A stretch of DNA of 64,000 nt, from contig JBBTSO010000004.1 in the NCBI GenBank assembly GCA_038064695.1, forward strand, positions 15,792 to 79,791. Direction: 5' to 3'. Source of the stretch: Patescibacteria group bacterium. Lineage in GTDB: Bacteria; Patescibacteriota; Minisyncoccia; Phycocordibacterales; Phycocordibacteraceae. The notes beneath the pieces were generated by a model that was not told the origin of the DNA, made no database searches, and worked only from the letters and a program-made list of their open reading frames with translations. This document shows, piece after piece, positions 3,829 to 63,864 of this stretch. Every line of letters starts with the position of its first letter. The first letter of the stretch is position 1. A program made the translations under genes and the position numbers.

Positions 3829-3894
3829 AGAATGAGACGTTTTTAGGGCAGGTTTCTTTCCCCAAGTATACCGTGTCTATGGTACCCTAAAGGC

Positions 3895-4374: not shown

Positions 4375-4377
4375 ACA

Positions 4378-5140: not shown

Positions 5141-5142
5141 GA

Positions 5143-5190
5143 AAAAACGGGAAGGGAATTCCTGTTTTTTCGGGGAGTCACCAGCTAGTA
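5143..5190. promoter_or_regulatory. 14-bp inverted-repeat hairpin between smpB and the tmRNA 5' end
   Basis: ccccgaaaaaacgg ... cctgttttttcgggg. It could be the smpB terminator and/or a tmRNA 5' processing signal. Confidence 0.4.
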
Positions 5191-5214
5191 TTCTTTTTTC
5201 AAGGTGCCGGAAAA

Positions 5215-5667: not shown

Positions 5668-5687
5668 CTAACGGTATAATACCTCGC

Positions 5688-7670
5688 ATGGACACAGACT
5701 CAAAAACACAAACCGTGAAAGAAAAAACAGAGAAGAAGGAAAAAGGGAAGAAAGGAAAGAAAAAACCAACACTTCCCAAACAGCTTGAACAGCTCGCGCA
5801 GTCTTCTCGTGAGGGGGGTTCGTGGGGAAACTTTACCTCCATCCTCATTACCATCCTCGTTCTCACGATGCTCTACTCTTTTGTCTCAAATGGTGGGAAA
5901 GAAGTAGAGCAAGTGTCGCTCTCCGCGCTTGTGTCTGACATTCGTGCGAGCGAAGTGACAAACATTGTGATTGCGGGAGATAAACTCACCATTACCTACA
6001 AAGACGAAACTGAAAAAGAGGGGAAAAAAGAGTACAATACCGCGCTCTCTGAGACCTTAGTGAACTACGGCTTAACCGCGGAAGAACTCGCCACCGTTGC
6101 CATTGAAGTTAAAAACGAAACTGGTTTTCGCTACTGGTTCTTCGCGCTCGCTCCTATTGCGGTGCCGCTCCTCTTAATCCTCGTGTTTGTGTGGTACCTC
6201 TCTCGCCAAGTGCGTGGCGCGGGTATGCAGGCGTTCACCTTCGGGCAGTCAAAAGCGCGCCTCACGGATCCCAAAGACAAAAATTCGCGCATTACGTTTT
6301 CTGACGTTGCGGGCGCAAAAGAGGCGAAGGAAGAGCTCACGGAAATCGTAGACTTTTTAAAGAACCCAAAAAAATTCTTGGACATCGGCGCGCGTATCCC
6401 GAAAGGAGTGTTGTTGATGGGAGCACCGGGCACCGGGAAGACACTTCTTGGTCGCGCTGTTGCGGGCGAGGCGGGCGTTCCGTTCTTCTCTATCTCAGGA
6501 TCTGAGTTTGTTGAAATGTTTGTGGGAGTTGGCGCCAGCCGTGTGCGCGATTTATTCCAAATGGCAAAACGCGCGGCGCCCGCCATTATTTTTGTTGATG
6601 AAATTGACGCCGTGGGGCGCGTGCGAGGTACGGGGGTTGGTGGGGGAAACGATGAGCGTGAACAAACCTTAAACCAAATTTTGGTTGAAATGGACGGGTT
6701 TGAACCCTCAGAGAAAGTCATTGTTATGGCGGCAACAAACCGTCCTGACGTCTTAGACCCCGCGCTTCTTCGTCCCGGCCGCTTTGATCGTCGCGTCACC
6801 ATTGACCTTCCTGACCGTGAGGGACGAGAGGAAATTCTCAAAATTCATGCGCGTAAAAAACCGCTCGCTGAAGATGTGAATTTAAAAATAGTTGCAGAAC
6901 GCACCCCAGGATTTTCAGGCGCTGATCTTCAGAGCTTGATGAACGAAGGCGCTATTCTTGCGGCGCGTGAGGATAGAAAGAAGGTAGCGCAGTTTGACTT
7001 GGTGCGCTCTATTGAAAAGGTAATGCTTGGTCCTGAGCGAAAAACACACATTCTTTCCCGCAAAGAGAAAGAAATAACCGCGTACCACGAAGCGGGACAC
7101 GCGCTGGTGGCGAGTGTGTTGCCGTACGCGGACCCCGTGCACAAAATTTCTATTATTTCTCGTGGACGTGCGGCCGGCTACACGCTCAAGCTTCCACTGG
7201 ATGATAAGAAAATGCAGTCGCGCAATGAATTTTTGGACGACATCGCGGTTAGTTTAGGTGGGTACATTGCTGAAGAAATGGTCTTTGGTGACTTAACGAC
7301 GGGTCCGTCAAACGACCTTCAGGTATTGACCGCGCTCGCGCGCGATATGGTTACCAAGTACGGTATGAGTAGCGTGATGGGGCCGGTGGCGCTTGAAGGG
7401 GAAGGTGGGCGTGCCATGTTTGGGCGCGGTATGAATGAGAAAGAGTATTCTCCTGAAGTGTCCGCAAAAATTGATGCCGAAGTGAAAAAAATTATTGATG
7501 ACGCGTATCGCAAAGCCACTGATCTTATTGTGAAACATCGCCCGGTCCTTGATGCTATTGCGAAAAAATTGGTGGTTGAAGAGAATATTGAACGTGATGA
7601 GTTTGAAAAACTCTTAATTCTTCACGGTATTGAGCCAAAAAAGAAGCAGGACATTGAACACCAGCCCTAA
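5688..7670 (+). CDS. ftsH: ATP-dependent zinc metalloprotease FtsH
   Basis: N-terminal TM helices, AAA module (GAPGTGKT Walker A, DEIDA Walker B), HEAGHA zinc motif. I moved the start to the ATG at 5688, which sits directly behind a TATAAT box. Confidence 0.9.
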
Positions 7671-8928: not shown

Positions 8929-9005
8929 GGGCGCGTAGCTCAGTTGGTTAGAGCACAGAGCTTATACCTCTGCGGTCCCTGGTTCGAGTCCAGGCGCGCC
9001 CACCA
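8929..9005 (+). tRNA. tRNA-Ile (anticodon UAU), CCA encoded
   Basis: Cloverleaf GGGCGCG / GCTC-AGTTGGTTA-GAGC / CAGAG-CTTATAC-CTCTG / CCTGG-TTCGAGT-CCAGG / CGCGCCC-A-CCA. All four stems are fully Watson-Crick. Confidence 0.85.
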
Positions 9006-48710: not shown

Positions 48711-49451
48711 CTATTTTGACACTCCTCGGAAATAGTCCGTCCCTCGGCCTTCTGGCCATTTTTGCGTTTCAATAAAGCGGCATAGGTAGGAATAAAAATT
48801 CACAGCCGATTGAATCGACGCTAATTTAATTCCTATGAATAATGTTGGATTAGTGTTAAAACTTTTCTTCAGGTAAATGGCGTCGGTTGGTAATATTGCT
48901 ATTTTGCTCCCATCTCCATGAACAATTCCATTTCTCTTGGAGTATAGATAATCCGCATAACCAATAACAGACGAGGGAACCTTGTTTCCTCTCGGTTTAT
49001 ATGAAAGGTGGATGCGGCCATCGTTAGCGTTAACCCTGGGACGGTTTAATTCTTGGCTTTCAACCTGCAGGCAGGTTTCCAAGAGTGTTCTAAGTTTTTT
49101 TGAATGACGTTCGCGTAGAAAATTAATTCGTACCAATTCTTCGATTCTCATTTTCACGTCCTCTTTCGGATTTTCTGAAGAGAGTATTTCATAAAACTCT
49201 TTGGCGTTAATGGTAGTATCTTTGACTTTATTAAGAACACTATCTTTAAATTCGGGAGAACTCTCTGCAAAAATGAGCAGTAAATAATCTAACAAGACAT
49301 CGAAACGGTTCACGAGATTTGTATATACCAAACGCTGTAGGTGTTTCCTATTTGCTTCTACTTTAATATTCTTCAGTTCGATAAGTGCTGATTCAATCTC
49401 GGTTTTTGAAAATTTCTCGAATTTTTTTATTAAGTTATCCGCTTCTTTCAT
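48711..49451 (-). CDS. hypothetical protein, possible HEPN-type (R-x4-H) domain
   Basis: C-terminal RNGIVHG fits the HEPN Rx4-6H motif and the protein is helical. Weak evidence. Confidence 0.3.
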   Translation of the reverse strand: MKEADNLIKKFEKFSKTEIESALIELKNIKVEANRKHLQRLVYTNLVNRFDVLLDYLLLIFAESSPEFKDSVLNKVKDTTINAKEFYEILSSENPKEDVKMRIEELVRINFLRERHSKKLRTLLETCLQVESQELNRPRVNANDGRIHLSYKPRGNKVPSSVIGYADYLYSKRNGIVHGDGSKIAILPTDAIYLKKSFNTNPTLFIGIKLASIQSAVNFYSYLCRFIETQKWPEGRGTDYFRGVSK

Positions 49452-49631
49452 AGGGTTAATTATACTCCCCGGAATCCGAACCTATCTCAATATACCTTCT
49501 TGTGCCTAAGACGGCATATGTCCTACTTTCGAGCGAACGAGGGTAATGAAAAAGTATGTTCATGCGCACAGCTGCGATGTCTGGTCCCGTACCACGTAAG
49601 TGAGACTGTTGAGCCTTATTGTAGCCGACTT

Positions 49632-50060
49632 TCAATTCTCACGCTGACGGCTTTGGGTCGATGTATTTAAGAGATACTCTTCCCACACTATCGGATACTG
49701 CTCGTGAGTTTTTGCCTCGACAAAAGCTACGCCCGAAGGAGTAAGTTCTCCCACTTTTCTAAACGGTCTCCATTCCAACCTCTTGAGAAGTCTTGCCTCG
49801 ACCAGGTGACTATCCTTGAACCGGACTTCGTAGGGGTTTCCCTGCAGATCGTTTTGCTCAAAATGCTCTTCTAGCATAGGGATGTTATCCGCATACTGCG
49901 GAGCGCTGGTTATCATTACCCCAACGAAGTAAGAGTCGTCATGACCGTCCAAAAAGACGATCGGGTGGATGGCGTCCGACCCCTTTCGACCGTATAAAAT
50001 ATCGCCCTTGTTCCATTCCATATATGACTTTTGTACCAAAATTATACAGTTTTGTACCAA
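49632..50060 (-). CDS. hypothetical protein, possible MazF/PemK-like toxin fold
   Basis: KGDILYG...HPIVFLDGHDDSYFVGVMITS resembles the MazF/Kid pattern (GDIvlV...RPavVvs). Weak evidence. Confidence 0.3.
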   Translation of the reverse strand: MVQNCIILVQKSYMEWNKGDILYGRKGSDAIHPIVFLDGHDDSYFVGVMITSAPQYADNIPMLEEHFEQNDLQGNPYEVRFKDSHLVEARLLKRLEWRPFRKVGELTPSGVAFVEAKTHEQYPIVWEEYLLNTSTQSRQREN

Positions 50061-50131
50061 AAAACGGCATCTGTATTTCCCCCGGGGAGAAATAGGCCGC
50101 TTTTTGTCTCGGCCCCCTATATACTTGAAAT

Positions 50132-50788
50132 ATGGATAGCGAGCAGAAAAAAGTAGCCTTTTACAGCTTCCCTCATGAACGAGAGGATCTAACTTTGCAT
50201 GTACGCCCTACTGCAAACGCGTGGTGGAAAGATCTGAAAAAAGTTGGCCTCCTTTTGGATGCGTTTGATAACCATTGTTCTCCGATCGATGAGGCTTGCT
50301 ACGTCGCGGGTATAACGCGCCGGCAATATAAATACTTCGCCCAGGAGCATCCAGTAATTTACGAACGGCGAAGGCGAGCAAAGTTTGCAAAGTGCGAACG
50401 CGAGATTGAAGAGAAAAGTTCGATGTATGGACACAGGATGAGAAACGGGAGTATGAAAAGTACGTTTCAGTTTCTTACATTCACAGAGCCGGGACAATTC
50501 GACTTGCGATACCGATCTGACTACGCGCGACTTCGCCGAATCCACGGACTCCCTGCTCATACGCCACCCCCAAGATCGGAAGAAGAAAAGCGTAGAGATA
50601 TGTTGGCGGAGGTTGAGAAGACCCGCATTATGCTGGGCCATCCTTCTGATCCGAAGCACTATGCGGTGTGCCAGGAGTGCGAACATCTTCTTCTCCCGCC
50701 ATCCGAGTGGCCTGAGCCGTATCGCTCTTCTTATTTTCAAAGTATGCCTCAAGGGCCAGCTCAGCCAAGTCATACAACTGCTGTCTAA
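50132..50788 (+). CDS. hypothetical protein (HTH-like segment); the 3' third is uncertain
   Basis: The N-terminal two-thirds look protein-like (ACYVAGITRRQYKYF HTH-like). The Pro-rich C-terminus overlaps a better-looking minus-strand ORF. Confidence 0.25.
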   Translation: MDSEQKKVAFYSFPHEREDLTLHVRPTANAWWKDLKKVGLLLDAFDNHCSPIDEACYVAGITRRQYKYFAQEHPVIYERRRRAKFAKCEREIEEKSSMYGHRMRNGSMKSTFQFLTFTEPGQFDLRYRSDYARLRRIHGLPAHTPPPRSEEEKRRDMLAEVEKTRIMLGHPSDPKHYAVCQECEHLLLPPSEWPEPYRSSYFQSMPQGPAQPSHTTAV

Positions 50789-50843
50789 CTTCAATAAGGT
50801 ATTCATCGGTGTAAGTCTCATCGGCTGGTAACAGCTCCCGCAT
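50628..50843 (-). CDS. small acidic protein (hypothetical)
   Basis: MRELLPADETYTDEYLIEVRQQLYDLAELALEAYFENKK is an acidic helical peptide directly downstream of the Imm gene. Start trimmed to the internal ATG. Confidence 0.25.
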   Translation of the reverse strand: MRELLPADETYTDEYLIEVRQQLYDLAELALEAYFENKKSDTAQATRMAGEEDVRTPGTPHSASDQKDGPA

Positions 50844-50866
50844 CTTCGCAAGAGATATACGACCAT

Positions 50867-51423: not shown

Positions 51424-51993
51424 TTAGTAAAAAATGACTCCGCTTCTCTTGAGTTCACTGCGTATCTGTAAATAATCAGGTATCCCTTTCTCGACCCATT
51501 TCCAAAATTTCCGGGAGTGATTGAACTCTTTCAAGTGAGACATCTCGTGCGCGATGATGTAGTCAGAGAGTCGCTGCGGCAAAAGTGCAATTTTGTAGTT
51601 AAAATTTAGGTTGCCTTTCTTTGAGCAACTACCCCAGCGGGTCTTTTGGTTCTTGATGTTAATTTGATTGTAATCGGCCTTATAGATCTTGTTGAAGTGC
51701 TTAACCCGGGCAACAGCGAGAGCCTGCGCACCGTCCTTATATTTTATATAGTCGGACTCGCTATATCGTGCGATTGCCTGACCTTTGAACTGTTTAAAGA
51801 ACGCGATCTTGGAGAAAAGCCACTGGCTCTTCTCTTTAATAAATCGCTCTGCTGTTGATTCCTGAAGATCAAACGGCGTTGTAACAACAATCGTCCCATC
51901 GCAATACACTGCGAGTCGCATTCTACGTGCTCGCTTACTCTTGCGGAGTGTGTAGTCAACTTTACGATTTGCGAGAGTGATTTGCTTCCTCAT
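51424..51993 (-). CDS. DUF45 / M48-like zinc metallohydrolase (YgjP family), RM-associated
   Basis: WGSCS ... HEMSHL motif arrangement. Immediately downstream of hsdR. Confidence 0.7.
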   Translation of the reverse strand: MRKQITLANRKVDYTLRKSKRARRMRLAVYCDGTIVVTTPFDLQESTAERFIKEKSQWLFSKIAFFKQFKGQAIARYSESDYIKYKDGAQALAVARVKHFNKIYKADYNQINIKNQKTRWGSCSKKGNLNFNYKIALLPQRLSDYIIAHEMSHLKEFNHSRKFWKWVEKGIPDYLQIRSELKRSGVIFY

Positions 51994-51994
51994 A

Positions 51995-54901
51995 TCAGAA
52001 TTTCTTAATCACTATGTCGACTAAGCGATTGAGATACTTGTGGAAATCCGCGACCTTTAACTTTCCTTTGTATTCTTTAAGCACAAGCTCCTGAACAATC
52101 CGCTTCACTTCTTTGAGGAATTCGTCACGCTTTGAGGATTCCTGCCATCCCTCATCGAGAACATCTTGAAGCCGGCTGGTCATATCTTTGATGAAATCAC
52201 GAATGACATCCTTATCTCCTTCAACGAATTCTTCTGAGATGACATAGAGGCCGTACTCTTTCAGTGAATAACCAAGCTCTTTTGCCTCGTCTCCCTTTTT
52301 CTTTATGTCTTCAAGAAGCTCCTGGTATCGCTTGATGCGCTCCGATAGATCGATCTGATTTTGTTCAAACTCCTTACGAATAGCGGAGAGCCGCTCACTG
52401 AACTTTTTGTACGCAGGGTTAGTGTCGACGTTTATGGAGATTTCTTGCTTAAGCATCTTCTCCAGGTTAAGCGCCTTCTCTTCATCATCCATCTTATTGA
52501 GCCGCTCCATGACATAAAGGTCATTCACATTGAGCTCCCTAAAGTTCTTAGTGATACCTTCGTAGTCCACGCGCTGCTGAATGAGAAGCTTTACCTTCTC
52601 ACCATACTCAGCAAGAAGCTCAGCGTCGGTCATCTTAGCTCCGTATTCCTTGTCGAATGCAATATAAACGCTCGTAAGCCATTCAAATGCCCGAATATGT
52701 GTCTTCAAAAATGGGTCAGGAGAGAGAATCTCAAACAAGAGCTTGAGACGGGCATACTTCTCACGAAAGAACTTCTGCTTATCGGTGTTCTCCGCAAAGA
52801 TCTTAAGACAGCGGCGCAGGTTTTCAATTGATGGATCCTCAATACTGACTCCTCCAAACACATCCATAGTCTCTTCAAGCACTTCGATAAACTCTTCCTT
52901 GAGCTTGTCGATGTTGATCATTGCAGAATCAACAACGCTCTCATCAAAGTTAAGCGCCTTGTGGAGACTCTTCGTGATGCCGTAGTAGTCGATAACCTTG
53001 CCGGCCCCCTTGTTTGGGTACACACGGTTCGTGCGTGCAATGGCCTGTAGCAAATTGTGATCCCAGAGCGGCTTATCAAGGTACATGACCTGTTCAACTG
53101 GGGCGTCAAAGCCGGTCAAAAGCATGTCACAAACCAGTAGGAACTTGAGAGGACTGTTTGGATCCTTAAACTCATTGATCAACTTCTCCCGCTTCGCTTT
53201 AGTAGTGTTGTACTTCTGGAGATCCTCAGCGCTTGTATTTGGGTCGCCTGGGGAATAAATGACGGCCGACCACTCCTTGGGCACAAGTTCGTCTAGCAAT
53301 TCTTTGTATCTCGCTGTCGCCTCACGGTCATAGCAGACAATCTGTGCTTTGAAACCAGCGGGTTCAACGTACAGTTTGTAGTGCTCGACAATATCTTGTG
53401 CAACAGCACGCATACGTCTATCGAGCTTTACGATCGCTTCTTTCTTCCCATATTTCTTTGCAACCTGGTCTTTCTCTTTGTCCGAAAGTCCCTGGGTTAG
53501 TTCTTCAAATTGCTTATCTATTTTCTCTTCATCAATAAAGAACTTTGAGAGTCGTGCTTCGTAAGTAACCGGGAGCGTGGCCCCATCCTCAACGGCTTGC
53601 TGAATCGAGTAATAGTCTAAGTAGCGCTCTCCCTCCTCCCCGAAGTTGCGATGGGTATTAAGTGTAGCTTTATCGATAGGCGTACCGGTAAAACCAAAGA
53701 AGAAAGCGTTCTTCAGAGAACTGCGGAGATTGATTGCAGAAACACCTTCGTTGTCTCTATGAGCCTCGTCTGAAAGAACGATAATGTTCTCGTCGAGATT
53801 CTCTATTTCATTTCCAAGCTCAGAGAATTTCTGAATAGTGGATATAAAGATGCCACGCTCAGGTGATTGTATTTTCTTCTCGAGCTCTTTGCGCGAATCA
53901 ACACGGACGACATTCTTACCTCCGCAGTTTACAAAAGTCTCATAGATCTGATCATCAAGGTCAATGCGGTCAACCAGAATAAATATCTTCGGATTCTTAA
54001 GTGCTTTATCAAAACGTAGCTTCCACGCAGTAAAGAACATCGTTAAGGACTTACCGGACCCCTGGGTGTGCCAAATAAGACCGCGCTTCTGGCTGCCTTC
54101 TGCCACTCGCTCGACAATCTTGTTTGTCGCTCGAAGTTGCTGATACCGTGCAATTTTCTTTACAGTGCGTTCCTTCTCCTTTTCGAAAAGAATAAAGTTC
54201 CTCACAATATCCAGTAAGCGTTCTTTTGAGAGTAGCGCCGTGAGAGTCATTTCCAATTCGCCACCGGCCAGCTTTTCAAGCTCCTCGTCACGCCATCGCA
54301 AGAAATACTGTGCAGGGGCATACGTAGCCCCGTACACAGTCTGTAGACCGTCAGTAGCGATATTGAAACAGTTCGGCCAGAACAGTTTGAATGCATTGCG
54401 CTCATAGCGCTTTATCTGCCCAACAGCGTTTGTATAGTTCACATTGCTTGCGGCAGTGGGACTCTTAGCCTCTACATCCACCACCGGGAGACCATTTAGG
54501 AAAACCATTACATCCGGGCGAATGTTCTCGGAATTTCCCTCAAAATAGAATTGATTGGTTACAACAAACCGATTATTGTCAGGTGTTTCAAAGTCGACGA
54601 CATAGTAGTCCCGCATTTTGCCGGTCTGAGGATCCTTCAAGTTGACGCCATCTCGAAGCATTTGAAGAAATGCTTCGTTGTTATCTATCTTCTTCACTTC
54701 GCGAACGACTGATACAGCTTCGTCTTCACCTATTCCGTTAATTTTCTTCACTGCTTCAAGAAGAAGCGGAGTGATTATGTATTCATTCTCAAACTCGCGG
54801 AGCTTGGTGAACTCCTGTGGCTTGATGTATTCGAAACTAAGCTTCTCTTGGAGAAACTTAATGACGTGATTTTCTACTGTATATTGTTCGTTGAATTTCA
54901 T
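51995..54901 (-). CDS. hsdR: type I restriction enzyme R subunit
   Basis: 968 aa. SF2 translocase motifs (TQGSGKS Walker A, VLSDEAHR DEAH box), N-terminal nuclease region, C-terminal helical domain. Confidence 0.9.
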   Translation of the reverse strand: MKFNEQYTVENHVIKFLQEKLSFEYIKPQEFTKLREFENEYIITPLLLEAVKKINGIGEDEAVSVVREVKKIDNNEAFLQMLRDGVNLKDPQTGKMRDYYVVDFETPDNNRFVVTNQFYFEGNSENIRPDVMVFLNGLPVVDVEAKSPTAASNVNYTNAVGQIKRYERNAFKLFWPNCFNIATDGLQTVYGATYAPAQYFLRWRDEELEKLAGGELEMTLTALLSKERLLDIVRNFILFEKEKERTVKKIARYQQLRATNKIVERVAEGSQKRGLIWHTQGSGKSLTMFFTAWKLRFDKALKNPKIFILVDRIDLDDQIYETFVNCGGKNVVRVDSRKELEKKIQSPERGIFISTIQKFSELGNEIENLDENIIVLSDEAHRDNEGVSAINLRSSLKNAFFFGFTGTPIDKATLNTHRNFGEEGERYLDYYSIQQAVEDGATLPVTYEARLSKFFIDEEKIDKQFEELTQGLSDKEKDQVAKKYGKKEAIVKLDRRMRAVAQDIVEHYKLYVEPAGFKAQIVCYDREATARYKELLDELVPKEWSAVIYSPGDPNTSAEDLQKYNTTKAKREKLINEFKDPNSPLKFLLVCDMLLTGFDAPVEQVMYLDKPLWDHNLLQAIARTNRVYPNKGAGKVIDYYGITKSLHKALNFDESVVDSAMINIDKLKEEFIEVLEETMDVFGGVSIEDPSIENLRRCLKIFAENTDKQKFFREKYARLKLLFEILSPDPFLKTHIRAFEWLTSVYIAFDKEYGAKMTDAELLAEYGEKVKLLIQQRVDYEGITKNFRELNVNDLYVMERLNKMDDEEKALNLEKMLKQEISINVDTNPAYKKFSERLSAIRKEFEQNQIDLSERIKRYQELLEDIKKKGDEAKELGYSLKEYGLYVISEEFVEGDKDVIRDFIKDMTSRLQDVLDEGWQESSKRDEFLKEVKRIVQELVLKEYKGKLKVADFHKYLNRLVDIVIKKF

Positions 54902-56061
54902 GATTCTAGATCTATTTGCAGATTCGTAAGTGCCGCTTGGTACTCCTGTGCCCTTGTAATTATTGCCGTCGCAGTAGATTCCGCTTCATCGTTTCCAACA
55001 CCTACGCGAATCAGTTCATTGCTTAGGTCTACCTGATTGACATTTGCGAAGCCAAGCACCGCTCTAACAGAAAGATTTTCTTTGATAGAATCTTGCTCTG
55101 AGGCAATTAAGAGTTTAGAGGCTTGCGATACTCCGTGAAGCAAGAAAGAAACATCTTGTTTACTGATGACTTTTTTAATTCGGACCTTTAACTCCTCCTC
55201 ATTTACCTCTTCAGAAACGTTGGTACCACTGAATATCTGACGATTAATATCTTCGTTGCTAGCCACCTCTCCCAGGCCGAGACGATCGCCACTTACAAAA
55301 CCGATGTTTGTGACATTCATATTTGTCTGGGTCAGAAGAAAGTTAATCATGAGGTACCCCTGGTCTCGGTAATTAATATCTTTCAGCCGCTCATACTGTG
55401 CTTTATCGGCCTGTTCTAGCTTAGTTAAAAATTCTGCCCATTCTTTGTCGCGAATTTTGTCGAGATGGTACATCAAGAATTTCTTAAACTCTTTTATATC
55501 CTTCAGCTTTTCCTCTTTAAGGTTGTTTTTGTTTATCAGGAAGCACGCTGAACGTTTGCCAAGCCGGGCAAAGCCGAGATCTTTCAGAAAGACCGGGTAC
55601 AGTCTGTTTGGTTGTGTTTCAAAATCTGGTATTGCAAGAGAGCGAACCAATCTACCTAGAGACGCACTATATACAAAGAGTGTGTAGTAGCCGGATGTAG
55701 TTGCTAAAGCAAAGAGGTCTTTTTCGCGCACTTCACTCTCTGCAAGGAGTTTGTTCAGAAGACCAAGCGCCTTCTGTCGTTCAGCGCGATCCGCGAAATA
55801 TTCTTTTTGCTCTTTCGCAAGTTTATCAAGATCTTCCTTCGTTTGCGTCGCCGTTTCAGCAACTGAATCAATTTTTGCGTCTGATAGATCCTGGTTTTTA
55901 TCCTCCTGGTACTTCTGATAAAAGCCATGCGATATGTCAACGACAAAGTAAAGAAGAAAAAGTACCGGGCTTTTCAATATCACTACAGCAAAAGCCCCGA
56001 GAGCTTTGAGGCCCAGGAGTTTATATTCAAGCAGCCGTTCTATTTCTTTCTTGGTAATCAT
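54898..56061 (-). CDS. uncharacterised membrane-anchored coiled-coil protein embedded between hsdS and hsdR
   Basis: 4-nt overlaps at both ends (56058-56061, 54898-54901). N-terminal hydrophobic segment LGLKALGAFAVVILKSPVLFLLYFVV. No Walker motifs and no recognisable nuclease or methylase motifs. Confidence 0.5.
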   Translation of the reverse strand: MITKKEIERLLEYKLLGLKALGAFAVVILKSPVLFLLYFVVDISHGFYQKYQEDKNQDLSDAKIDSVAETATQTKEDLDKLAKEQKEYFADRAERQKALGLLNKLLAESEVREKDLFALATTSGYYTLFVYSASLGRLVRSLAIPDFETQPNRLYPVFLKDLGFARLGKRSACFLINKNNLKEEKLKDIKEFKKFLMYHLDKIRDKEWAEFLTKLEQADKAQYERLKDINYRDQGYLMINFLLTQTNMNVTNIGFVSGDRLGLGEVASNEDINRQIFSGTNVSEEVNEEELKVRIKKVISKQDVSFLLHGVSQASKLLIASEQDSIKENLSVRAVLGFANVNQVDLSNELIRVGVGNDEAESTATAIITRAQEYQAALTNLQIDLES

Positions 56062-57239
56062 GGTGTTTTTACTCTCACCGATCCTGTCAGCAGGTCTTGC
56101 ATGAGACCCTTCTTAAGTAGAAAAAGCTTGCCCTTCAATTTTTGATTGATGGAGATTTTTTCATCGACCGAAGTGAGAATGTTGGCAATTTCTTTTTGTT
56201 CACTGACAGAAGGGCGAGATATGTACATCTCACGAATAACAGTTTGGGATATGTTTGGTTGTGCAGCGCCCCGGGCTTTAGAAATTAGTTCTTCAGTCTT
56301 ATTGGAAAGAAAATAATACACAAACTCTGGATTGAAGTGTTCGCTAGGCAAAACTCCACAAACCGCCTGGTTGGTTGAAGCATTAATCGATAAAAATCCA
56401 ACTTGCCCCGCCGTTGCCCCATACATTGCAACAAGAACAGTACTTTTGGGGAATATTTTTGCAGATGAGTTTTTAAGGCCAGCATTTGTAATATATTGAG
56501 TGGCATTATAAACACGTCCTTGTCGTACCTCACCGCTCGTTAACCAAGGGATAGTGCCGCCCTCGTAGTATTCTTTTTTACTCTTGAGTGGAGTGCCACC
56601 GGAAGAGGTGTCGAGGACATCACCAAGCTTTTTGACGTCCCACGTACTTGGTACTTCTCCGATTTCTGTTCTCTTAAATTTCGTATGTCCGATACCACGC
56701 GTAAATAGCTGCTGCATTAGCCCGCCCTTGAGTTTCTCGGTCGCAGTAATGATCTCATCAGTTTTCTGAATCTCTTCATCAACCACACTCAAGATCTCCG
56801 CGATTTTCTTTTGTTCAGAGTGTGGAGGAACAAGAACCTCCATGTTTTGATATTGAGAAATGTAATATCGTTTATGACTTCCCGTCGGAAAGTTGATTGA
56901 CTTCATTTTCTCGTAGACAAACTGAAGGTCGACATCGGCACCCCTTTCCTTGAGAATTTTTATTGCCGACGACTTAACCTTAAACGGAAAATCTGCGAAC
57001 TTGCTGTCGGTTGTAAAATCATCAAAAATTATTGCCGGCAAATTTGTATAAATACCGTCTTTCTCATCCGTATAACCGAGAACAAAAGACTTGTTTGCAG
57101 TAAGAACTGGCGTGCCGGCTTTTATATATCGATTGTTCTCGACTATGTATCTGTCGGGACGTTCATAACCCAGCAGATCCTTAATCTGTCTTACTTGCCA
57201 CCCTTTCGGAATATTCTTTTTTGGCGCAGTTTTTGTCAT
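56058..57239 (-). CDS. hsdS: type I restriction-modification specificity subunit
   Basis: Two target-recognition domains separated and flanked by conserved coiled-coil repeats; 393 aa. Confidence 0.85.
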   Translation of the reverse strand: MTKTAPKKNIPKGWQVRQIKDLLGYERPDRYIVENNRYIKAGTPVLTANKSFVLGYTDEKDGIYTNLPAIIFDDFTTDSKFADFPFKVKSSAIKILKERGADVDLQFVYEKMKSINFPTGSHKRYYISQYQNMEVLVPPHSEQKKIAEILSVVDEEIQKTDEIITATEKLKGGLMQQLFTRGIGHTKFKRTEIGEVPSTWDVKKLGDVLDTSSGGTPLKSKKEYYEGGTIPWLTSGEVRQGRVYNATQYITNAGLKNSSAKIFPKSTVLVAMYGATAGQVGFLSINASTNQAVCGVLPSEHFNPEFVYYFLSNKTEELISKARGAAQPNISQTVIREMYISRPSVSEQKEIANILTSVDEKISINQKLKGKLFLLKKGLMQDLLTGSVRVKTP

Positions 57240-59041
57240 TTTCTAAATTCGATCTCAGTAAAAAGCGCAGCGATATTTTTCTTGGTCGTATCGCTCAAAG
57301 TCACTGACCCAGCACGCACCTTCTGGAGAAACTTGCGCGCGAGCAATACCTTGTCGGGACGCGACTTGAGACCTTTGATGTACTCGGAGTTTGAGGATGT
57401 GTATGCGAGCTTTGTATCCTCAAGAACATATTCCTTGAAATCTTCAACACTGAAGATGTCAACAATAGTTGTTCCGTCCTTTTTGGTGACCACTTTTATA
57501 GCTTCTGGAAGCACTTTCCAATCCTTCAACCTCTTCTCGCCATCCTTCTTACCTTGGTCGTTGTCATAGAGGTAACGAACGTTGGCACCCCAGCCCTCAA
57601 GAACCGCACCGACGAGGCCCATGTTCGGTGCACCGCCGCCATTGATGAAGTTCGTTTTGAGAGTCTTTTTCTCAAGCTCCTTGAAAGCTCGGAGATAGAA
57701 CACGTCTTCCGGCCCTTCGACTACAACGTTATCCTTTTGATCAAGGTTTGTAATTGAGTCGTTAATGCCGAGACCAATAGCGGTGAGAATAGGCGTAAGT
57801 GTTTCTTTGTCTGCAGTCGGATGAGCGTGTATTTTGCCGAGTATCTTTGTGCCTTTCGCTGTCTTTTCGATCAATCGAACATTTTCAAGGTTATCCTCGG
57901 TAAGGAGATACGGGGAGTGCGTCGAGAAGACAACAGGGTTATCGTTCGTGTGCTCCGTGAGGACCTGTAACAGGTCCTTCTGGGCTTTGGCATGCAGATA
58001 GAGGCCCGGCTCGTCGATTAGGATGACGTTCGGCTTGTCTTCCTGAAGCCGCGCGACGATTTTTACATAGAATGATAGGTACCACTGCTGACCCTTGCTC
58101 CGTTGCGAGGGGTAGTAGAGCTTATTACTCTCGACGATCCAGAAGTTAATGTCCGTACCGTCTTTTTTGACCTCCAATTTTATTTTGTCCTGCGTCCAAT
58201 ATTTCTCAAATTTGTCAGAAAATTCAACGTTCACGGTCTTCTCGTGATTTGCCTGCTCCTGCTGGTTCGTTGATGCCATCTTTGCGATGGAAAAGTTGCT
58301 GACCTGTTCAAGATCTTTCGCCCAGTCATTTGTTGCAAGTGAAGCAATGGGAATTGATTTCGGGAATTCGTCGTCGAAGGACGAGAAGAGAACGAAGTAA
58401 GGAAGTTGAGTCTCAACGAATTTGCTGATGAAAGCAGTTACCACACTCTCTCGCGCATAAAAGTCGTCAGCGGCCTTGCCAATCTTCTCGACCTCACTTG
58501 CCACATCTGTTAACCCCGGATTCTGGTTCTTAAAAGTCTCCGCTTCGGCTTTATAGTCGCTGAGTTTTTGCTTCTCGAAGCGTGGGAATTTTGCGTCACT
58601 GCCAGCAGTCTTAATGAGAGAGTCGGCCTTCTTCATCGAATCGAGAATCTGTTTTTTTGATGTGCTGTATATATTTGGCAGACTAAGCAGTTTTCGTGAT
58701 TCATCATCAAACGTGTATGTATCCGCACCAAATTTCTTCGTGAGGGTAATGAGTGTATCCTTGGAGACTGTTGTTCCGGCCGCTGCCTCGTCAAGGAGAT
58801 CATTTATTTCCTCTTTCGTGAGAGTAAAGGAGATCGAGACTTCAGGAATCCCGTCTCCTTCGATTGGTTTTGCCTCTCCTCTGATTGCTCGGCTTTGATG
58901 GAAGTCTTCCAGTGCTTCGAGCACAGAAGTTTTCCCAGACTCGTTTTTGCCAGCAAGAATGGTTAGTTTTTCACTGAAATAACAATCACCGGAGTCCACG
59001 ATGGATTTGTAGTTTTTGATTCTGAATTTCGTAAGTTTCAT
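57236..59041 (-). CDS. OLD-family ATP-dependent endonuclease (ABC-type ATPase + Toprim) embedded between hsdM and hsdS
   Basis: N-terminal Walker A ILAGKNESGKTSVLEAL; Walker B/D-loop LIDEPGLYLH; C-terminal Toprim-like VVVEGPEDVFYLRAF and YLYDNDQGK (DxD). ATG at 59041 lies 4 nt after the hsdM stop; the longer track ORF extends into hsdM. Confidence 0.65.
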   Translation of the reverse strand: MKLTKFRIKNYKSIVDSGDCYFSEKLTILAGKNESGKTSVLEALEDFHQSRAIRGEAKPIEGDGIPEVSISFTLTKEEINDLLDEAAAGTTVSKDTLITLTKKFGADTYTFDDESRKLLSLPNIYSTSKKQILDSMKKADSLIKTAGSDAKFPRFEKQKLSDYKAEAETFKNQNPGLTDVASEVEKIGKAADDFYARESVVTAFISKFVETQLPYFVLFSSFDDEFPKSIPIASLATNDWAKDLEQVSNFSIAKMASTNQQEQANHEKTVNVEFSDKFEKYWTQDKIKLEVKKDGTDINFWIVESNKLYYPSQRSKGQQWYLSFYVKIVARLQEDKPNVILIDEPGLYLHAKAQKDLLQVLTEHTNDNPVVFSTHSPYLLTEDNLENVRLIEKTAKGTKILGKIHAHPTADKETLTPILTAIGLGINDSITNLDQKDNVVVEGPEDVFYLRAFKELEKKTLKTNFINGGGAPNMGLVGAVLEGWGANVRYLYDNDQGKKDGEKRLKDWKVLPEAIKVVTKKDGTTIVDIFSVEDFKEYVLEDTKLAYTSSNSEYIKGLKSRPDKVLLARKFLQKVRAGSVTLSDTTKKNIAALFTEIEFRK

Positions 59042-59045
59042 AATT

Positions 59046-60791
59046 TCAATAATTAAGCTCTTTGAGATATCCTTCGACTTTTTTATCAAGCTCCGTACGT
59101 TCCTTCTCAAGAACAGCGAGCTCCTTGCGCACAGCAGAGACGTCAACCTCTTCCTCCTTGTCACCATTTTCAATATAGCGACGCACATTAAGATTGAACT
59201 CATTTGCCTCTATCTCTTTGAGATCAACGACCCGGGTGTAGTTATCAATATCCTTAAAGCCGTCATACGCTTTGACGATCTTCTGAATGTCCTGGTAGCG
59301 AAGAGAGTTCTGATTCTTACCCTCAGAAAAGTCCTTTTCACCATCGACAATAAGCACCTTACCTTTGCGAGCTTCTGGCTTGTTTTTGTTGAAGATAAGA
59401 ATCGCTGCTGGAATACTTGTGCCGTAGAAAAGCTTTGATGGGAGTGCGATCACCGCCTCAATGAGATCGTTCTTGAGTATTTGCTCGCGAATACGACCTT
59501 CAGACCCACCTCTAAACAGCACCCCGTGTGGGAGCACGATACCAGCGCGCCCATTCGAATTCATCGATTTAATGATGTGAAGTACGAATGCATAATCAGC
59601 GTTCTTGTTCGGCGGCAATTCATATCCGTCGATACGGCCATATTTGTCCGACTTGAACATCTCATACTCCCAGTCGTTGATTGAGTACGGAGGGTTTGCG
59701 ACACAGATATCAAATGACTTGAGACTGCCATTCGGATTCAGAAACTGTGGGTTAGCCAAAGTATCTCCACGTAGAATGTCGGCGCTGTCGAGACCATGAA
59801 GAAACATGTTGATCTTCGCAATTGCGTATGTACCAATGTTGATCTCTTGGCCGTAGAGATAGAGAGTGCGTGCAACTTGTTCGCCCTCTTTTTCTTTCAA
59901 ATGATGGAACGCTTCAAGAAGGAACCCGCCTGATCCGACCGTAGGGTCGTAGATGTGATCCTTTTTGTGCGGCTTGAGTATTTGTATGATGACGCGCTCT
60001 ACCTCACGCGGAGTATAAAACTCACCTCCTTTCTTCCCAGCGTCAGCCGCGAATTGCTTGATGAGGTATTCGTATGCGTCACCAAGAACGTCGGAGTTAA
60101 TGTAAGTGTCGCCAAAGTTATACTGCGAGAAGTGGTTTATGAGACGCTGTGTCGTTTCGTTCGGGAATCGGTCCTTGTTTGCAAAATCGAGATCGTCAAA
60201 AATTCTGTCGAGTTTCGGGCTGTTTGCATTTGCGAGCTTTTCAAAAATCTCATTGAGTTTCTTGCCGATATTCTCAGCCTTCTCTTCAACGACGGCCCAA
60301 CGGCACTCCTTTGGTACTTGAAAGCGGTGATTGTAGTCTGCCCGCGCGATTGTTTCGTCTTTGAACTCATCCATCACCCGCGCGTACTCCTCATCCCACA
60401 CGTCGCTGATGCGTTTAAAAAAGAGGAGGCCGAAGATGTACTTTTTATAGTCGGAGCTATCAATTTTGCCGCGCAGAATGTCGGCGCTCTTCCAGAGAAA
60501 TTGTTCAAGCTGCGGAAGAGTAAGCTTGCTCCCCATCTTATCGACGATCGTCTGGATGTCTTGGGGGCGGTATTTACGATCCCCACGTTTACCAGAACGC
60601 ATAGGCACTAAAATGCCCTCCTTTTCCCAGTTACGGAGAGTGTCCGGATGGATATTAAAAATCTCTGCCACTTGGCCGATAGAGAGGAGGTCGGGCTTAT
60701 CCTTGAGCTTTGCTTGGATGTCTTTTCTCATAATCTTCATTAATATCCTATCTGACTGCAAATACAAAGTCAAGTGTTCATAGGTCTTCAT
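59046..60791 (-). CDS. hsdM: type I RM N6-adenine DNA methyltransferase M subunit with an N-terminal MerR/excisionase-type HTH extension
   Basis: HsdM_N helix (LPQLEQFLWKSADILRG), SAM motif, catalytic NPPY (ANPPYS). The first ~85 aa (SIGQVAEIFNIHPDTLRNWEKEGILVP) form an HTH_17/MerR-like domain in the same frame. Confidence 0.85.
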   Translation of the reverse strand: MKTYEHLTLYLQSDRILMKIMRKDIQAKLKDKPDLLSIGQVAEIFNIHPDTLRNWEKEGILVPMRSGKRGDRKYRPQDIQTIVDKMGSKLTLPQLEQFLWKSADILRGKIDSSDYKKYIFGLLFFKRISDVWDEEYARVMDEFKDETIARADYNHRFQVPKECRWAVVEEKAENIGKKLNEIFEKLANANSPKLDRIFDDLDFANKDRFPNETTQRLINHFSQYNFGDTYINSDVLGDAYEYLIKQFAADAGKKGGEFYTPREVERVIIQILKPHKKDHIYDPTVGSGGFLLEAFHHLKEKEGEQVARTLYLYGQEINIGTYAIAKINMFLHGLDSADILRGDTLANPQFLNPNGSLKSFDICVANPPYSINDWEYEMFKSDKYGRIDGYELPPNKNADYAFVLHIIKSMNSNGRAGIVLPHGVLFRGGSEGRIREQILKNDLIEAVIALPSKLFYGTSIPAAILIFNKNKPEARKGKVLIVDGEKDFSEGKNQNSLRYQDIQKIVKAYDGFKDIDNYTRVVDLKEIEANEFNLNVRRYIENGDKEEEVDVSAVRKELAVLEKERTELDKKVEGYLKELNY

Positions 60792-60812: not shown

Positions 60813-62207
60813 TTGCAAAATAAGGATAATTTGGTTATCCACTACCGCACTAGACTTCCTGACCCGGGTCCGGCTATATGTAGCTGTATGGAAAACGCGA
60901 CCCTTTATGGGGCCCAAATAGCCGCCCCTACCCCTCAGGAGGCCGTAGCGATCCGTTATTGCCTGTATGCTCGTAAATCCAGTGTAGCAGAGGAGAAACA
61001 AGCCTTATCGGTAGAATCCCAAGTTAAGGAGATGCTGGCGGTAGCCCAGCGGGAAAATCTTGAAATAGTGGACATTTACCGGGAATCTCATTCGGCCAAG
61101 GCCTGTGGAGAAAGACCTGTCTTTAATCAGCTCTTGAGCGACATCCGGGCAGAGAAATTCAACGGGGTCCTTGTATGGCATCCTGACCGGCTCAGCAGGA
61201 ATGCCGGCGACCTGGGTGCGATCGTAGACCTCTTTGATCAAAAGAAACTCATTGAAATAAAGACTCACAGCCAGCGCTTCACAAATAATCCGAATGAAAA
61301 ATTCCTGCTCATGATTCTTGGTAGCCAAGCAAAGCTGGAGAACGACAACAAAAGCATCAACGTAAAGCGTGGGTTGAAAACTAAGTGCGAACTGGGGCTC
61401 TGGCCGTCGGTGGCACCGACAGGATATTTGAATAGTAAAAACGTAACGCAGAAAGGTCAGGTGTTTGTGGATCCCGAAAGAGCACCTCTCATTAAGGAAC
61501 TTTTTACAAAGTTTGCACACCACGGCATGAGTGGCAGAAAAATCTTTCGTTGGCTTCGCGAGATAGGTTTCCTTACCCGAACTGGCAAACCACTGACGCT
61601 AAGCAACATATACGTTATCTTAAACAACCACTTTTATTACGGTGCTTTTGAATATCCCAAGGCAAGCGGTAGATGGTACCAGGGTAGCCACACTCCCCTC
61701 ATCACCAAGGGGCTCTTTGATGATGTACAGAAACAACTGCAACTACAACGCAAGATTAAGGGAAAGAACAAGGAGTTCGCATTCACGAAGCTAATGACCT
61801 GCGGGCTGTGCGGTTCGGGGATCAGCGCAGAGGAGAAATATAAAAATCTGAAAGACGGATCCGTTGCCAAGTACATCTACTATGGCTGTACCCGGGCACG
61901 AGACATAAACTGCAAGGGTGGATATCTCGAGGAGAGGCAACTTGTCACTCAGTTATTGGAGCTGATGGATAAGGTGGATCTCGACAAATCCGGTATACGA
62001 AAAAAGTTAGAGATGGAGATCGAGCGACATAAAAAGTTCCACTCAAACATTATGGGCAAAAAAGAGGAGGAGTATCGAGCAAAAGATGTCGACATACGAA
62101 ATTACGCAAAGTATGTTTTGAACGAAGGATCCATCTTTGAGAAACGTGACTTGATTGGATGCCTACGTAGCAAAGTGCAGATCTCAAATAAGCGCATATC
62201 CATCTAA
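60813..62207 (+). CDS. large serine recombinase (integrase type)
   Basis: Catalytic YARKSS...Q resolvase domain, recombinase domain, zinc-ribbon CGLCGSG...YYGC, coiled-coil C-terminus. The true start may be ATG 60885. Confidence 0.85.
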   Translation: MQNKDNLVIHYRTRLPDPGPAICSCMENATLYGAQIAAPTPQEAVAIRYCLYARKSSVAEEKQALSVESQVKEMLAVAQRENLEIVDIYRESHSAKACGERPVFNQLLSDIRAEKFNGVLVWHPDRLSRNAGDLGAIVDLFDQKKLIEIKTHSQRFTNNPNEKFLLMILGSQAKLENDNKSINVKRGLKTKCELGLWPSVAPTGYLNSKNVTQKGQVFVDPERAPLIKELFTKFAHHGMSGRKIFRWLREIGFLTRTGKPLTLSNIYVILNNHFYYGAFEYPKASGRWYQGSHTPLITKGLFDDVQKQLQLQRKIKGKNKEFAFTKLMTCGLCGSGISAEEKYKNLKDGSVAKYIYYGCTRARDINCKGGYLEERQLVTQLLELMDKVDLDKSGIRKKLEMEIERHKKFHSNIMGKKEEEYRAKDVDIRNYAKYVLNEGSIFEKRDLIGCLRSKVQISNKRISI

Positions 62208-62255: not shown

Positions 62256-62344
62256 TCTGAATACGGCGCTCAGCCGGTATGCCATGACGGGATGGAGTTA
62301 TCTAGTTTCGACGGCTTTAGGTCCATCGATACTAAACTAGACTG

Positions 62345-62415
62345 CTGGGAGACTTGGATTCGAACCAAGATTGACTGCTCCAGAGGCAGTAGTCCTACCA
62401 TTAGACGATCTCCCA
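62345..62415 (-). tRNA. tRNA-Gln (anticodon CUG)
   Basis: Minus strand UGGGAGA-UC-GUCU...GGAC-U-ACUGC-CUCUGGA-GCAGU-CAAU-CUUGG-UUCGAAU-CCAAG-UCUCCCA-G. U1-A72 as in many tRNA-Gln genes. Confidence 0.8.
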
Positions 62416-62598: not shown

Positions 62599-63864
62599 CT
62601 AGTACACCCCGGCTTCTTGTAGGTATGAGTTGAAGAATTGTTTGCAGTCGAAGTCGCCTTCGGTGGTGGCACCTTGGCCGCACTCATTTTGTGCAGGGTC
62701 AGGTATGCCGCAGATTGTGCCGTGGCAGTGGTAGTAGGCGCATTTGTCGGGCTTGGCAAGATGCAAGGCAGTGGGGAAGGCACGTTGGCGTGCTTCATTT
62801 TCTTTCCTAATCTGTTCTTCTCGCGCTCTGATTTTTGCTTCTACGTCGTGCAATTCTTGTTCAAGTGCTTCTTTCTCGGCGAGCCTTCTCTCACGAAGGT
62901 TTTTATAAAAATCTAAGCCGGACTCAATGTTCACTTTGCGTTCAGCGCGAAGCGCGTTTAGTGCACCCTCAAACTGGGTTTTGGTACTTTCGGGCGGAAT
63001 GTAGGTGTCCACTTCGCTCAAATCAACACGAAGTTTGCTTTCGCGCTTCGTTATGTTTTCTATACTGTCATCAACTGCTTGTATTTCGCCAGGTATGGCG
63101 GCCGCTCGGGCACGCAGTGCGGCGAGTTCTGGGTCAAGCGCAGGGTCTAAGAGTCGGCAGCTCGCAAGGTTTGTTGGTGTGTCACCCTCTCCGGATTCAC
63201 CATCGCGAATAGGGTCGGTGAAGGCGTCTTTTCCTTTCGGAGGGTTACATGCTTTTTCTCTCGCGTCTAAGCCCGCGAGGCCTGCGTTAAGTGCTGCACG
63301 GAGCGCCTGTGTGTTTTGTGTAAAGGTGGCTTGGGTTGCCGCCATAGACGCGTCGTAGGCGTCAAAACACGCCTTAGTGTCGGACGCTTCGTATGGAATA
63401 TCGGGTTTCGGCGGGTTTGCGGCGCGACACTGGTCTAAGGCACCTTTCGCGTCTTTGTAGTTTTTATACGCGATGTCGCGCTTTGCAAAGTAGTTTTGAA
63501 ATTCTGCGTACGAAGCACTGTCCGGAGGTGAGGGGATGTCATTAAATCCGCTGACGGCTTCGTCGCGTACTTTTTGTTCGTTAGCGCACGGGTCGGTGGG
63601 CGAGGCACTGAGGCATGCGCTTAAACGTTCCTCCGCAGCCGACCGCTCTTCTGCAAATACTTCCACACTTGCTGCAACTCCCGCATCGTAGAGCCCCTGG
63701 AGTTCTACACGCGCCTCGTCTATCGCGTCGCACGCTATAGCACTGGCATTAAAACTTTGGAGAGCGAGAATGATACCGGCAACCGCCACAGCGGCTACTA
63801 CGACGGCCCCGGCAAGGGTGCGTGAATTCATATCTAAAAACAGTATACTCCTGTTTTGATGCAA
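62599..63864 (-). CDS. hypothetical secreted/membrane-anchored Cys-rich protein
   Basis: 421 aa. N-terminal TM/signal (LAGAVVVAAVAVAGIILAL), long Ala-rich coiled region, C-terminal Cys cluster (CAYYHCHGTICG...CGQG...C). Confidence 0.45.
   Translation of the reverse strand: MHQNRSILFLDMNSRTLAGAVVVAAVAVAGIILALQSFNASAIACDAIDEARVELQGLYDAGVAASVEVFAEERSAAEERLSACLSASPTDPCANEQKVRDEAVSGFNDIPSPPDSASYAEFQNYFAKRDIAYKNYKDAKGALDQCRAANPPKPDIPYEASDTKACFDAYDASMAATQATFTQNTQALRAALNAGLAGLDAREKACNPPKGKDAFTDPIRDGESGEGDTPTNLASCRLLDPALDPELAALRARAAAIPGEIQAVDDSIENITKRESKLRVDLSEVDTYIPPESTKTQFEGALNALRAERKVNIESGLDFYKNLRERRLAEKEALEQELHDVEAKIRAREEQIRKENEARQRAFPTALHLAKPDKCAYYHCHGTICGIPDPAQNECGQGATTEGDFDCKQFFNSYLQEAGVY

Follow-up and report, generated by a model that had tools for sequence, protein, structure and literature searches.

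A type I restriction-modification operon of a Patescibacteria group bacterium with two nested genes, an OLD-like ATPase-Toprim gene and the uncatalogued candidate X387

Gene content of the operon and its island

The stretch of DNA described here (the window) comprises 64,000 nucleotides of contig JBBTSO010000004.1 from a Patescibacteria group bacterium. Six co-directional genes are located on its minus strand at positions 51424-60791, in the order HTH-hsdM (hsdM fused to a helix-turn-helix domain), OLD-like gene, hsdS, X387, hsdR and YgjP/DUF45 (Table 1); the name X387 is used for the 387-aa open reading frame (ORF) between hsdS and hsdR. The same order and coordinates had been given in an original prediction made from the letters of the DNA, and they were borne out. 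The locus is a type I restriction-modification (RM) operon in which the OLD-like gene and X387 are nested as independent cargo. This arrangement is an already described phenomenon, that of independent embedded defence cargo, and X387 is an uncatalogued candidate. A database protein 100% identical to X387 (P0001) belongs to a Patescibacteria metagenome-assembled genome.

Judged by its motifs, the operon is a complete type I RM system, with hsdM, hsdS and hsdR all present. HsdM carries the NPPY and S-adenosylmethionine-binding motifs, HsdS two target-recognition domains, and HsdR a PD-(D/E)xK nuclease motif together with a DEAH helicase. The HsdM proteins of the window and of the four other complete X387-bearing RM operons have a MerR/HTH_17 DNA-binding domain at the N-terminus (residues ~35-82 in the window), possibly a regulator of the operon that is built into HsdM. 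The HsdM of one of these operons (L006) additionally ends in a C-terminal KilA-N domain. The YgjP-like peptidase is the constant last gene of this RM lineage, its gene following hsdR in all four of these operons and in the related operon L032.

The junctions between the six genes had been described as 4-nt overlaps. This holds for three of the five (OLD/hsdS, hsdS/X387 and X387/hsdR, each an ATGA overlap), whereas the other two are spacers, of 4 nt between hsdM and the OLD-like gene (TGAaattATG) and of 1 nt between hsdR and the YgjP gene. The start of the OLD-like gene that is common to its homologues is the ATG at 59041, which gives 601 aa; the longest ORF begins at 59203, inside hsdM. Because the two extra genes are so tightly packed, they are probably co-transcribed and co-translated with the RM genes. 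Promoter- and terminator-like sites occurred in about the numbers found in shuffled sequence and were of no help in delimiting transcription units.

Table 1. Genes and features of the RM operon and the adjoining recombinase-tRNA region, in window coordinates.
Feature	Position	Strand	Evidence
hsdM, type I methyltransferase subunit	59046..60791	-	Pfam N6_Mtase 2e-109, HsdM_N 1.7e-26, MerR_1 6e-12; TIGR00497 hsdM above cutoff; NPPY at residue 366, DPTVGSGGF at residue 282
OLD-like ABC ATPase-Toprim protein, 601 aa, class-1-type (single gene), in the hsdM-hsdS slot	57236..59041	-	Pfam AAA_15 1e-24 and AAA_21; PADLOC AriA 5e-27, Old 5e-24; alignment to GajA
hsdS, specificity subunit, two target-recognition domains	56058..57239	-	Pfam Methylase_S 6.5e-43 in two stretches; PADLOC Specificity_I 7e-72
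X387, 387 aa	54898..56061	-	Conserved homologues; no match in Pfam, PADLOC or NCBIfam
hsdR, restriction and translocase subunit	51995..54901	-	TIGR00348 hsdR 1e-168; Pfam HSDR_N, SWI2_SNF2, T1R_D3-like, T1RH-like_C; D130...E144-A-K146; DEAH at residue 378
YgjP-like (DUF45) zinc metallopeptidase	51424..51993	-	Pfam YgjP-like 2.7e-42; HEMSH at residue 149
Large serine recombinase, divergent from hsdM, probable island integrase	60813..62207	+	Pfam Resolvase, Recombinase, Zn_ribbon_recom
tRNA-Gln(CTG), probable integration target adjoining the recombinase	62344..62415	-	ARAGORN

With a serine recombinase and tRNA-Gln beside hsdM, the RM operon appears to ride on a tRNA-targeted integrative island, and the locus as a whole appears to be a tRNA-Gln-adjacent integrative defence island. 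The island is mobile. Similarity between the window and the other loci ends at the edges of the RM-plus-recombinase block; the exceptions are L010 and L027, which have short matches to the tRNA-Gln region, and L026, with a single match that is short and weak. Homologous recombinases adjoin the X387 gene or its operon in L001, L010, L021, L027 and L030. X387 regions are flanked by tRNA-Gln in L027 and L010 and by tRNA-Gly(CCC) in L003, L030, L008 and L012. To locate the far end of the island, a repeated copy of the tRNA-Gln region was sought; the search returned no att-like repeat and only a 14-nt inverted match, probably due to chance.

The OLD-like gene and X387 as independent cargo

The OLD-like protein had been predicted to have Walker A and B motifs and the Toprim motifs EG..D and DND, and all of these are present. 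The ABC-ATPase residues comprise Walker A GKNESGKT (G31-T38), the signature S315-x-GQQ, Walker B D343-E344 and the H-loop H375; the Toprim residues are E442 and D446 (EGPED) and D493 and D495 (DND). In an alignment of 116 homologues, G31-K37 of Walker A and each of the other motifs and residues are at least 98% conserved. Aligned to GajA, E442 corresponds to E379, and D493 and D495 correspond to D432 and D434. AAA_15 and AAA_21 span residues 1-380. The Pfam model OLD-like_TOPRIM (PF20469) scores 19.9 bits against the C-terminal 200 residues, under its cutoff of 23.2 bits, and is carried by homologues at 55-57% identity in their precomputed annotation. In a PADLOC check, which had been suggested with the original prediction, hsdS and the OLD-like protein were recognised (the latter by the AriA and Old models) and X387 was not. 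The best PADLOC match of the OLD-like protein is the AriA model (5.6e-27), but only over the generic AAA_15 region; the AriAB fusion model likewise aligns only to residues 1-385, and the C-terminus matches the Old model and OLD-like_TOPRIM instead.

Neither a UvrD-like helicase (class 2, Gabija), nor a retron reverse transcriptase (class 3), nor a separate AriB/Toprim gene (class 4, PARIS) adjoins the OLD gene in the window, L031, L032 or L037. The protein is therefore assigned to the class-1-type single-gene OLD proteins in the classification of PMC10568477. Gabija was considered and rejected, as there is no adjacent GajB (UvrD/PcrA-like helicase) and HsdR is the sole helicase in the operon. 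Like P2 Old and Thermus scotoductus OLD, both of class 1, and like HEC-04, the protein is a single polypeptide whose N-terminal part is an ABC ATPase and whose C-terminal part is a Toprim domain; it keeps the class 1 Walker A/B, signature, H-loop and acidic Toprim residues and is without a helicase or reverse-transcriptase partner. It differs from class 1 in being distantly related to the closest solved structures, those of GajA and Thermus scotoductus OLD (E about 1e-6), and in having a sub-threshold OLD-like_TOPRIM match. It also differs in its setting: class 1 OLD genes are usually not adjoining other defence genes (review PMC10568477), whereas the present subfamily is repeatedly located in or beside type I RM. 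By analogy with its family, the protein would be an ATP-dependent Toprim DNA nuclease directed against invading DNA, forming a second line of defence that works autonomously. Over 1100 matches were found at E≤1e-10, many of them 70-83% identical and from several phyla, which makes the family a large one. The gene adds little beyond one more embedded class-1-type OLD.

The genomic settings of X387 were described from 36 loci collected around its homologues, many of them duplicates, which were annotated with the window proteins and by all-against-all clustering. The 18 informative contexts underlie Table 2. X387 is the last gene of a small cassette in which the upstream partner varies: HsdS, a ribbon-helix-helix (RHH) protein, a winged helix-turn-helix (wHTH)-like protein, or an AbiL-like pair of ATPase and RloB.

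Table 2. Settings of X387 and its homologues.
Setting	Loci
Embedded between hsdS and hsdR	window, L001, L006, L008, L012, partial L016
After an RHH protein (fam6, ~298 aa)	L003, L005, L019, L021
After fam8 (~390 aa, RHH-like motif)	L014, L022, L028
After a wHTH-like 212-aa protein	L036
After an AbiL-like AAA_21 ATPase and RloB	L033
Without a co-directional upstream gene	L010, L018, L027

The X387 gene, already noted to occupy the position that PrrC takes between hsdS and hsdR, is conserved and recurs in that position in six loci. The plan of the RM-embedded loci is constant (HTH-hsdM, slot, hsdS, X387, hsdR, YgjP), and the ATGA overlap of hsdS and X387 is retained in all five complete operons (window, L001, L006, L008 and L012). 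The content of the slot between hsdM and hsdS varies. The window has the OLD-like gene there, L001 and L006 have unknowns of 480 aa and 166 aa respectively, and L008 has a ThsB-like TIR gene with a 135-aa gene, the match being to the PADLOC candidate PDC-M50; in L012 the slot is empty. In L006 a NucC-like DUF6602 gene separates X387 from hsdR as well. In this RM lineage the junctions hsdM-hsdS and hsdS-hsdR act as cargo slots, and those of their contents that can be recognised are defence genes, known or candidate; the first slot has OLD as an interchangeable occupant, the second X387 as a recurrent one.

Four other contexts of OLD homologues were examined, three of them with searchable DNA (L031, L032 and L037). 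In L032 the homologue is embedded between hsdM and hsdS of an RM operon of the same lineage; a further one is located beside a type I RM system, and two are standalone, on an Acidobacteria contig (L031) and a Lactococcus plasmid (L037). OLD homologues, like those of X387, are thus found together with RM genes. The cargo between the hsd genes of L032 (4913-15687) consists of the OLD homologue, PDC-S21 (DUF4917/SIR2-like), a 53-aa gene and a PD-T4-5-like 201-aa gene; a half-size hsdS is located upstream of hsdM, and the operon ends with hsdR and YgjP. This locus illustrates how heavily the cargo slots are used.

OLD and X387 are independent cargo and do not co-vary. OLD homologues are absent from L001-L030, the four other complete X387-bearing RM operons contain neither an OLD gene nor any ABC ATPase, and a profile search for X387 in the three searchable OLD neighbourhoods found none. 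Potentially in favour of a partnership is a 382-aa gene without a Pfam match, 5.5 kb from the OLD homologue P0138, which might be related to X387. In the original prediction the two genes formed one undescribed module, an OLD protein split from its partner by hsdS. Since X387 is without OLD in every other context examined, and OLD without X387 in the searched neighbourhoods, the idea of a split partner is not supported. The OLD gene itself behaves as a portable, self-contained module of one gene, with homologues that are standalone, beside type I RM or embedded in it.

Genes nested in type I RM operons are usually defence genes, so that embedding itself is a ground for suspecting a defence function (guilt-by-embedding), and OLD-like ATPase-Toprim genes and other defence genes are embedded in multi-gene defence operons; HEC-04, an embedded ATPase-Toprim protein, has validated defence activity (Payne et al. 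2024, bioRxiv 10.1101/2024.01.29.577857). TgvAB is a validated defence pair inside the type I RM operon of Vibrio cholerae VPI-2. The present locus resembles such cassettes (Hma-embedded, HEC; phage-defence-candidate, PDC; TgvAB; Campylobacter rlo), which are nested in Hma, BREX or DISARM operons or in those of type I RM. TgvAB and the rlo genes are located between hsd genes, and the slot contents vary between related operons, as they do here, where sister loci carry PDC-M50, PDC-S21, NucC-like and PD-T4-5-like genes. By the recurrent-embedding standard of Payne et al. 2024, X387 is an embedded defence candidate: it is found in six RM loci and is without mobilome or housekeeping annotation. 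It differs from the catalogued cassettes in matching none of the 5027 PADLOC models, PDC and HEC candidates included; its source organisms, of the Candidate Phyla Radiation (CPR) and DPANN, were probably too rare among the RefSeq genomes screened by Payne et al. 2024. Nesting in type I RM is an established route to new immunity genes; here it is encountered in Patescibacteria, which are ultra-small and uncultivated and about whose defence repertoire little is known. The value of the locus lies mainly in X387: it is restricted to CPR and DPANN, has no match in curated libraries, and has kept the PrrC slot across deep divergence.

The X387 family and its candidate functions

X387 has 25 full-length homologues at 43-100% identity. 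A profile search among 1.84 billion cluster representatives found only 100 matches at the level of 50%-identity clusters, almost all of 340-420 aa, and from these numbers and the near-constant length the family is rare and of a single architecture. A further profile search of 5.8 billion proteins with a deep alignment found neither new relatives nor domain fusions. Several distant members are from DPANN archaea according to their source names (Pacearchaeota, Woesearchaeota, Micrarchaeota and Norongarragalinales; P0027, P0083, P0102 and P0104), and the family is confined to CPR bacteria and DPANN archaea. Its sharing between these two groups of ultra-small episymbionts suggests inter-domain transfer.

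Searches with X387 itself against Pfam, PADLOC, NCBIfam and PHROGs gave no significant match; when 80 members of the family were scanned with Pfam, nothing credible came up, only scattered single chance matches. Sequence searches of the PDB, with X387 alone and with an 80-sequence profile, gave nothing below E=0.04, and a Foldseek search of the BFVD viral structures gave no match at E≤0.001. Homologues are absent from IMG/VR contigs, from PLSDB (72,556 plasmid records) and from INPHARED (50,697 phage records).

The AlphaFold2 model of X387, made from the 80-sequence alignment, has a predicted local distance difference test score (pLDDT) of 84 and a predicted template modelling score (pTM) of 0.69. 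It consists of a helical hairpin (~4-47), a long helix to residue 108, an alpha/beta domain (~120-280) and a helical C-terminal domain (288-380). The N-terminal hydrophobic hairpin with its long helix and the lack of a Walker A motif, features ascribed to the protein beforehand, were confirmed by the model, by Kyte-Doolittle hydropathy and by a P-loop check. In the N-terminal ~90 residues the 19-residue Kyte-Doolittle mean reaches at least 1.6 in 75 of the 80 members, a measure of hydropathy only, the helices being short. The polar positions conserved across the family are mostly basic (R153, R166, K292, K296 and K327), with a few acidic ones, and no catalytic-type constellation of residues is conserved. 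Several identities were considered for X387 and rejected: PrrC or RloC, as there is no P-loop and PrrC also finds no PADLOC, Pfam or NCBIfam match; a nuclease or peptidase, as catalytic residues are not conserved; and a HUH Rep-like protein, as the conserved histidine pair is missing.

X387 is portable between RM and RHH contexts. In a neighbour-joining tree the RM-embedded and RHH-partnered genes are interleaved, and the RM-embedded X387 of L012 is 74% identical to the RHH-partnered one of L003, closer than to any other RM-embedded copy. The fam6 RHH gene precedes X387 with a spacer of 7-39 nt in L003, L019 and L021, which is the antitoxin-toxin order of type II toxin-antitoxin systems. The arrangement differs from such systems in that the RHH partners are large (~298 aa), the window operon has no RHH partner, and toxicity of X387 is only proposed. 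The C-terminal domain of the RHH partners is without a known family; PDB and Pfam searches with the C-terminal domains of fam6 and fam8 were empty. In an hhalign comparison of fam6 with fam8 the alignment was confined to the RHH-like segments and fell short of significance (E=0.08), and homology is not claimed.

The best explanation of the locus as a whole is an integrative island that carries an intact type I RM system with YgjP and two independent nested cargo genes, of which X387 would be a membrane effector; this is given a probability of about 0.55. Taken separately, the role proposed for X387, that of an effector without enzymatic activity that acts at the membrane as a toxin or in abortive infection, is tentative and of low confidence. 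The proposal is drawn from the conservation of a putative membrane hairpin, a coiled-coil-like helix and a basic, non-catalytic cytosolic domain, and follows the logic of two-transmembrane (2TM) effectors. The 2TM effectors of CBASS and Pycsar combine a short membrane hairpin with a larger cytosolic sensing domain. X387 is like them in having a modelled N-terminal hairpin, a larger predicted cytosolic part and no enzymatic signature, by analogy and not homology; it is unlike them in that no sequence or fold similarity was detected and no nucleotide-second-messenger synthase is located nearby. In the proposed mechanism the hairpin at the N-terminus would enter the membrane, leaving the cytosolic domains to bind a partner or signal, and the co-translated upstream protein would hold X387 latent, namely an HsdS-containing complex in RM operons and an RHH or wHTH protein elsewhere. 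The OLD protein would operate alongside, by itself.

The RM-embedded X387 could act in the manner of PrrC/EcoprrI without being a member of the PrrC family. Both are an extra gene between hsdS and hsdR, and X387, like PrrC, is proposed to be a latent suicide effector that is freed when a phage inhibits restriction. PrrC, however, is an ABC-ATPase with an anticodon nuclease, whereas X387 has no P-loop or nuclease signature and has a predicted N-terminal membrane hairpin, in agreement with the earlier view that it is not PrrC. X387 is also found outside RM, whereas for PrrC an almost exclusive occurrence inside RM operons was noted by Payne et al. 2024 (bioRxiv 10.1101/2024.01.29.577857). The abortive backup upon RM inhibition that had been suggested for both genes is a possibility for X387 alone. 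The most far-reaching version, an unlikely one, is that X387 founds a new CPR/DPANN family of membrane-anchored guard effectors, coupled to the HsdS complex or to RHH/wHTH sensors, that would kill or arrest the cell when a phage anti-restriction protein disables the partner, as a non-nuclease counterpart of PrrC. Were X387 such a guard, watching over restriction and acting at the membrane, RM-coupled suicide defence would gain a second example with a different mechanism, and the immunity of episymbiotic microbes would become accessible to experiment.

Several points weigh against the effector reading of X387. Its toxicity, membrane insertion and defence role are predictions. At ~15-17 residues each, the hairpin helices are short and might form a buried helical core instead of a transmembrane hairpin. 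X387 has no co-directional upstream partner in L010, L018 and L027, which is hard to reconcile with a toxin dependent on a partner to neutralise it. The informative contexts number only about 18. The distant member in L033 follows an ATPase and RloB (Toprim-like) pair, so that X387 may yet have a functional link to ATPase-Toprim proteins. Finally, the strong link to integrases could mean that X387 serves the mobile element and not the host.

This last point is the basis of the strongest rival, in which X387 mainly serves the integrative element, by addiction of a toxin-antitoxin-like kind or by membrane-level exclusion of competing elements, and would have come into RM operons as a hitch-hiker among the island cargo. 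Nine X387 contexts have a serine or tyrosine integrase at most three genes away. In some minimal islands the X387 cassette is the sole apparent cargo: L036 consists of an integrase, a 55-aa gene, the 212-aa wHTH-like gene and X387, and L027 of tRNA-Gln, X387 and a recombinase. Type II antitoxins and autoregulators are typically of the RHH or wHTH kind, like these upstream partners. However, the searches of phage and plasmid records, IMG/VR contigs and BFVD structures reported above returned no homologue, and the six RM loci have X387 precisely inside the operon, with a stop/start overlap in the five complete ones, whereas random hitch-hiking would more likely have placed it beside the operon. 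Addiction and defence are, moreover, compatible with each other. This reading is considered rather improbable, somewhat more so than the effector proposal.

Some type I RM enzymes are membrane-associated. X387 might be an accessory subunit of the type I RM enzyme and not a separate defence effector: either a tether bringing the HsdS/M/R complex to the membrane where DNA enters, or a factor that regulates assembly or the alleviation of restriction. This would fit the ATGA coupling to hsdS, present throughout the five complete operons, the position between hsdS and hsdR, fixed down to ~45% X387 identity, and the conserved basic residues without a catalytic signature; besides its putative membrane anchor, X387 has a long helix that could dock on the HsdS coiled coil. 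The chances of this reading are low, given at least 12 X387 contexts without any RM genes, RM-embedded and RHH-partnered copies that are up to 74% identical, and a sister operon of the same lineage (L032) that lacks X387 and has other cargo in its slot. The effector, element-service and RM-subunit readings are not fully exclusive of each other.

It is very unlikely that OLD and X387 together make up a single new RM-linked defence system whose two parts hsdS separates. Both genes are in a single tightly packed operon, and in L033 (4928-10661) a distant X387 homologue (P0037) is located 11 nt downstream of the AbiL-like pair of AAA_21 ATPase and RloB, a layout that resembles a split OLD or AbiL system. 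But none of the at least 12 X387 contexts without RM has an OLD homologue, and an ATPase-Toprim-like pair is found in L033 only. With the four OLD-less RM operons and the three OLD neighbourhoods without X387 described above, the context data already largely refute this reading. The family sizes differ as well: with OLD so large a family and X387 so rare, an obligate partnership is impossible for most OLD members. In L033 the X387 homologue is followed by an integrase fragment and then by an unrelated 374-aa multi-transmembrane protein.

That the X387 ORF is spurious or a decaying frame, such as an insertion remnant, is refuted and practically excluded: the lack of any match to a curated family would be in its favour, but it is contradicted by the full-length homologues, the ~100 clusters with conserved length and motifs, the confident model and the conserved start/stop coupling.

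Neighbouring sequences

The part of the window that separates the YgjP gene from housekeeping genes (PGA_cap, cupredoxin) has orphan ORFs at 48711-49451 (minus strand), 49632-50060 (minus strand), and 50132-50788 (plus strand) or 50189-50866 (minus strand). At 50.1-50.9 kb the two long ORFs overlap on opposite strands and the coding strand is ambiguous. The ORFs of 48711-50866 had no match in Pfam or PADLOC, and the 246-aa ORF had none in the PDB either; the 246-aa protein contains an RNGIVH (Rx4H, HEPN-like) motif. These ORFs may be further island cargo. In L010, a cluster at 1834-6143 between tRNA-Gln and the serine recombinase/X387 pair has genes for an N6/N4 methyltransferase and a HerA-like DUF87 ATPase, and one for an unknown protein of 446 aa; this could be a further defence cassette carried by an island of the same kind. 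An alanine-rich ORF of 421 aa is located at 62599-63864 (minus strand) of the window, in a region with a guanine-plus-cytosine content of 53% versus about 47%; it has no Pfam match, and a marginal match to the PADLOC model LmuB (E=0.0045) is probably due to chance. A tRNA-Ile with anticodon TAT is predicted by ARAGORN at 8929-9005.

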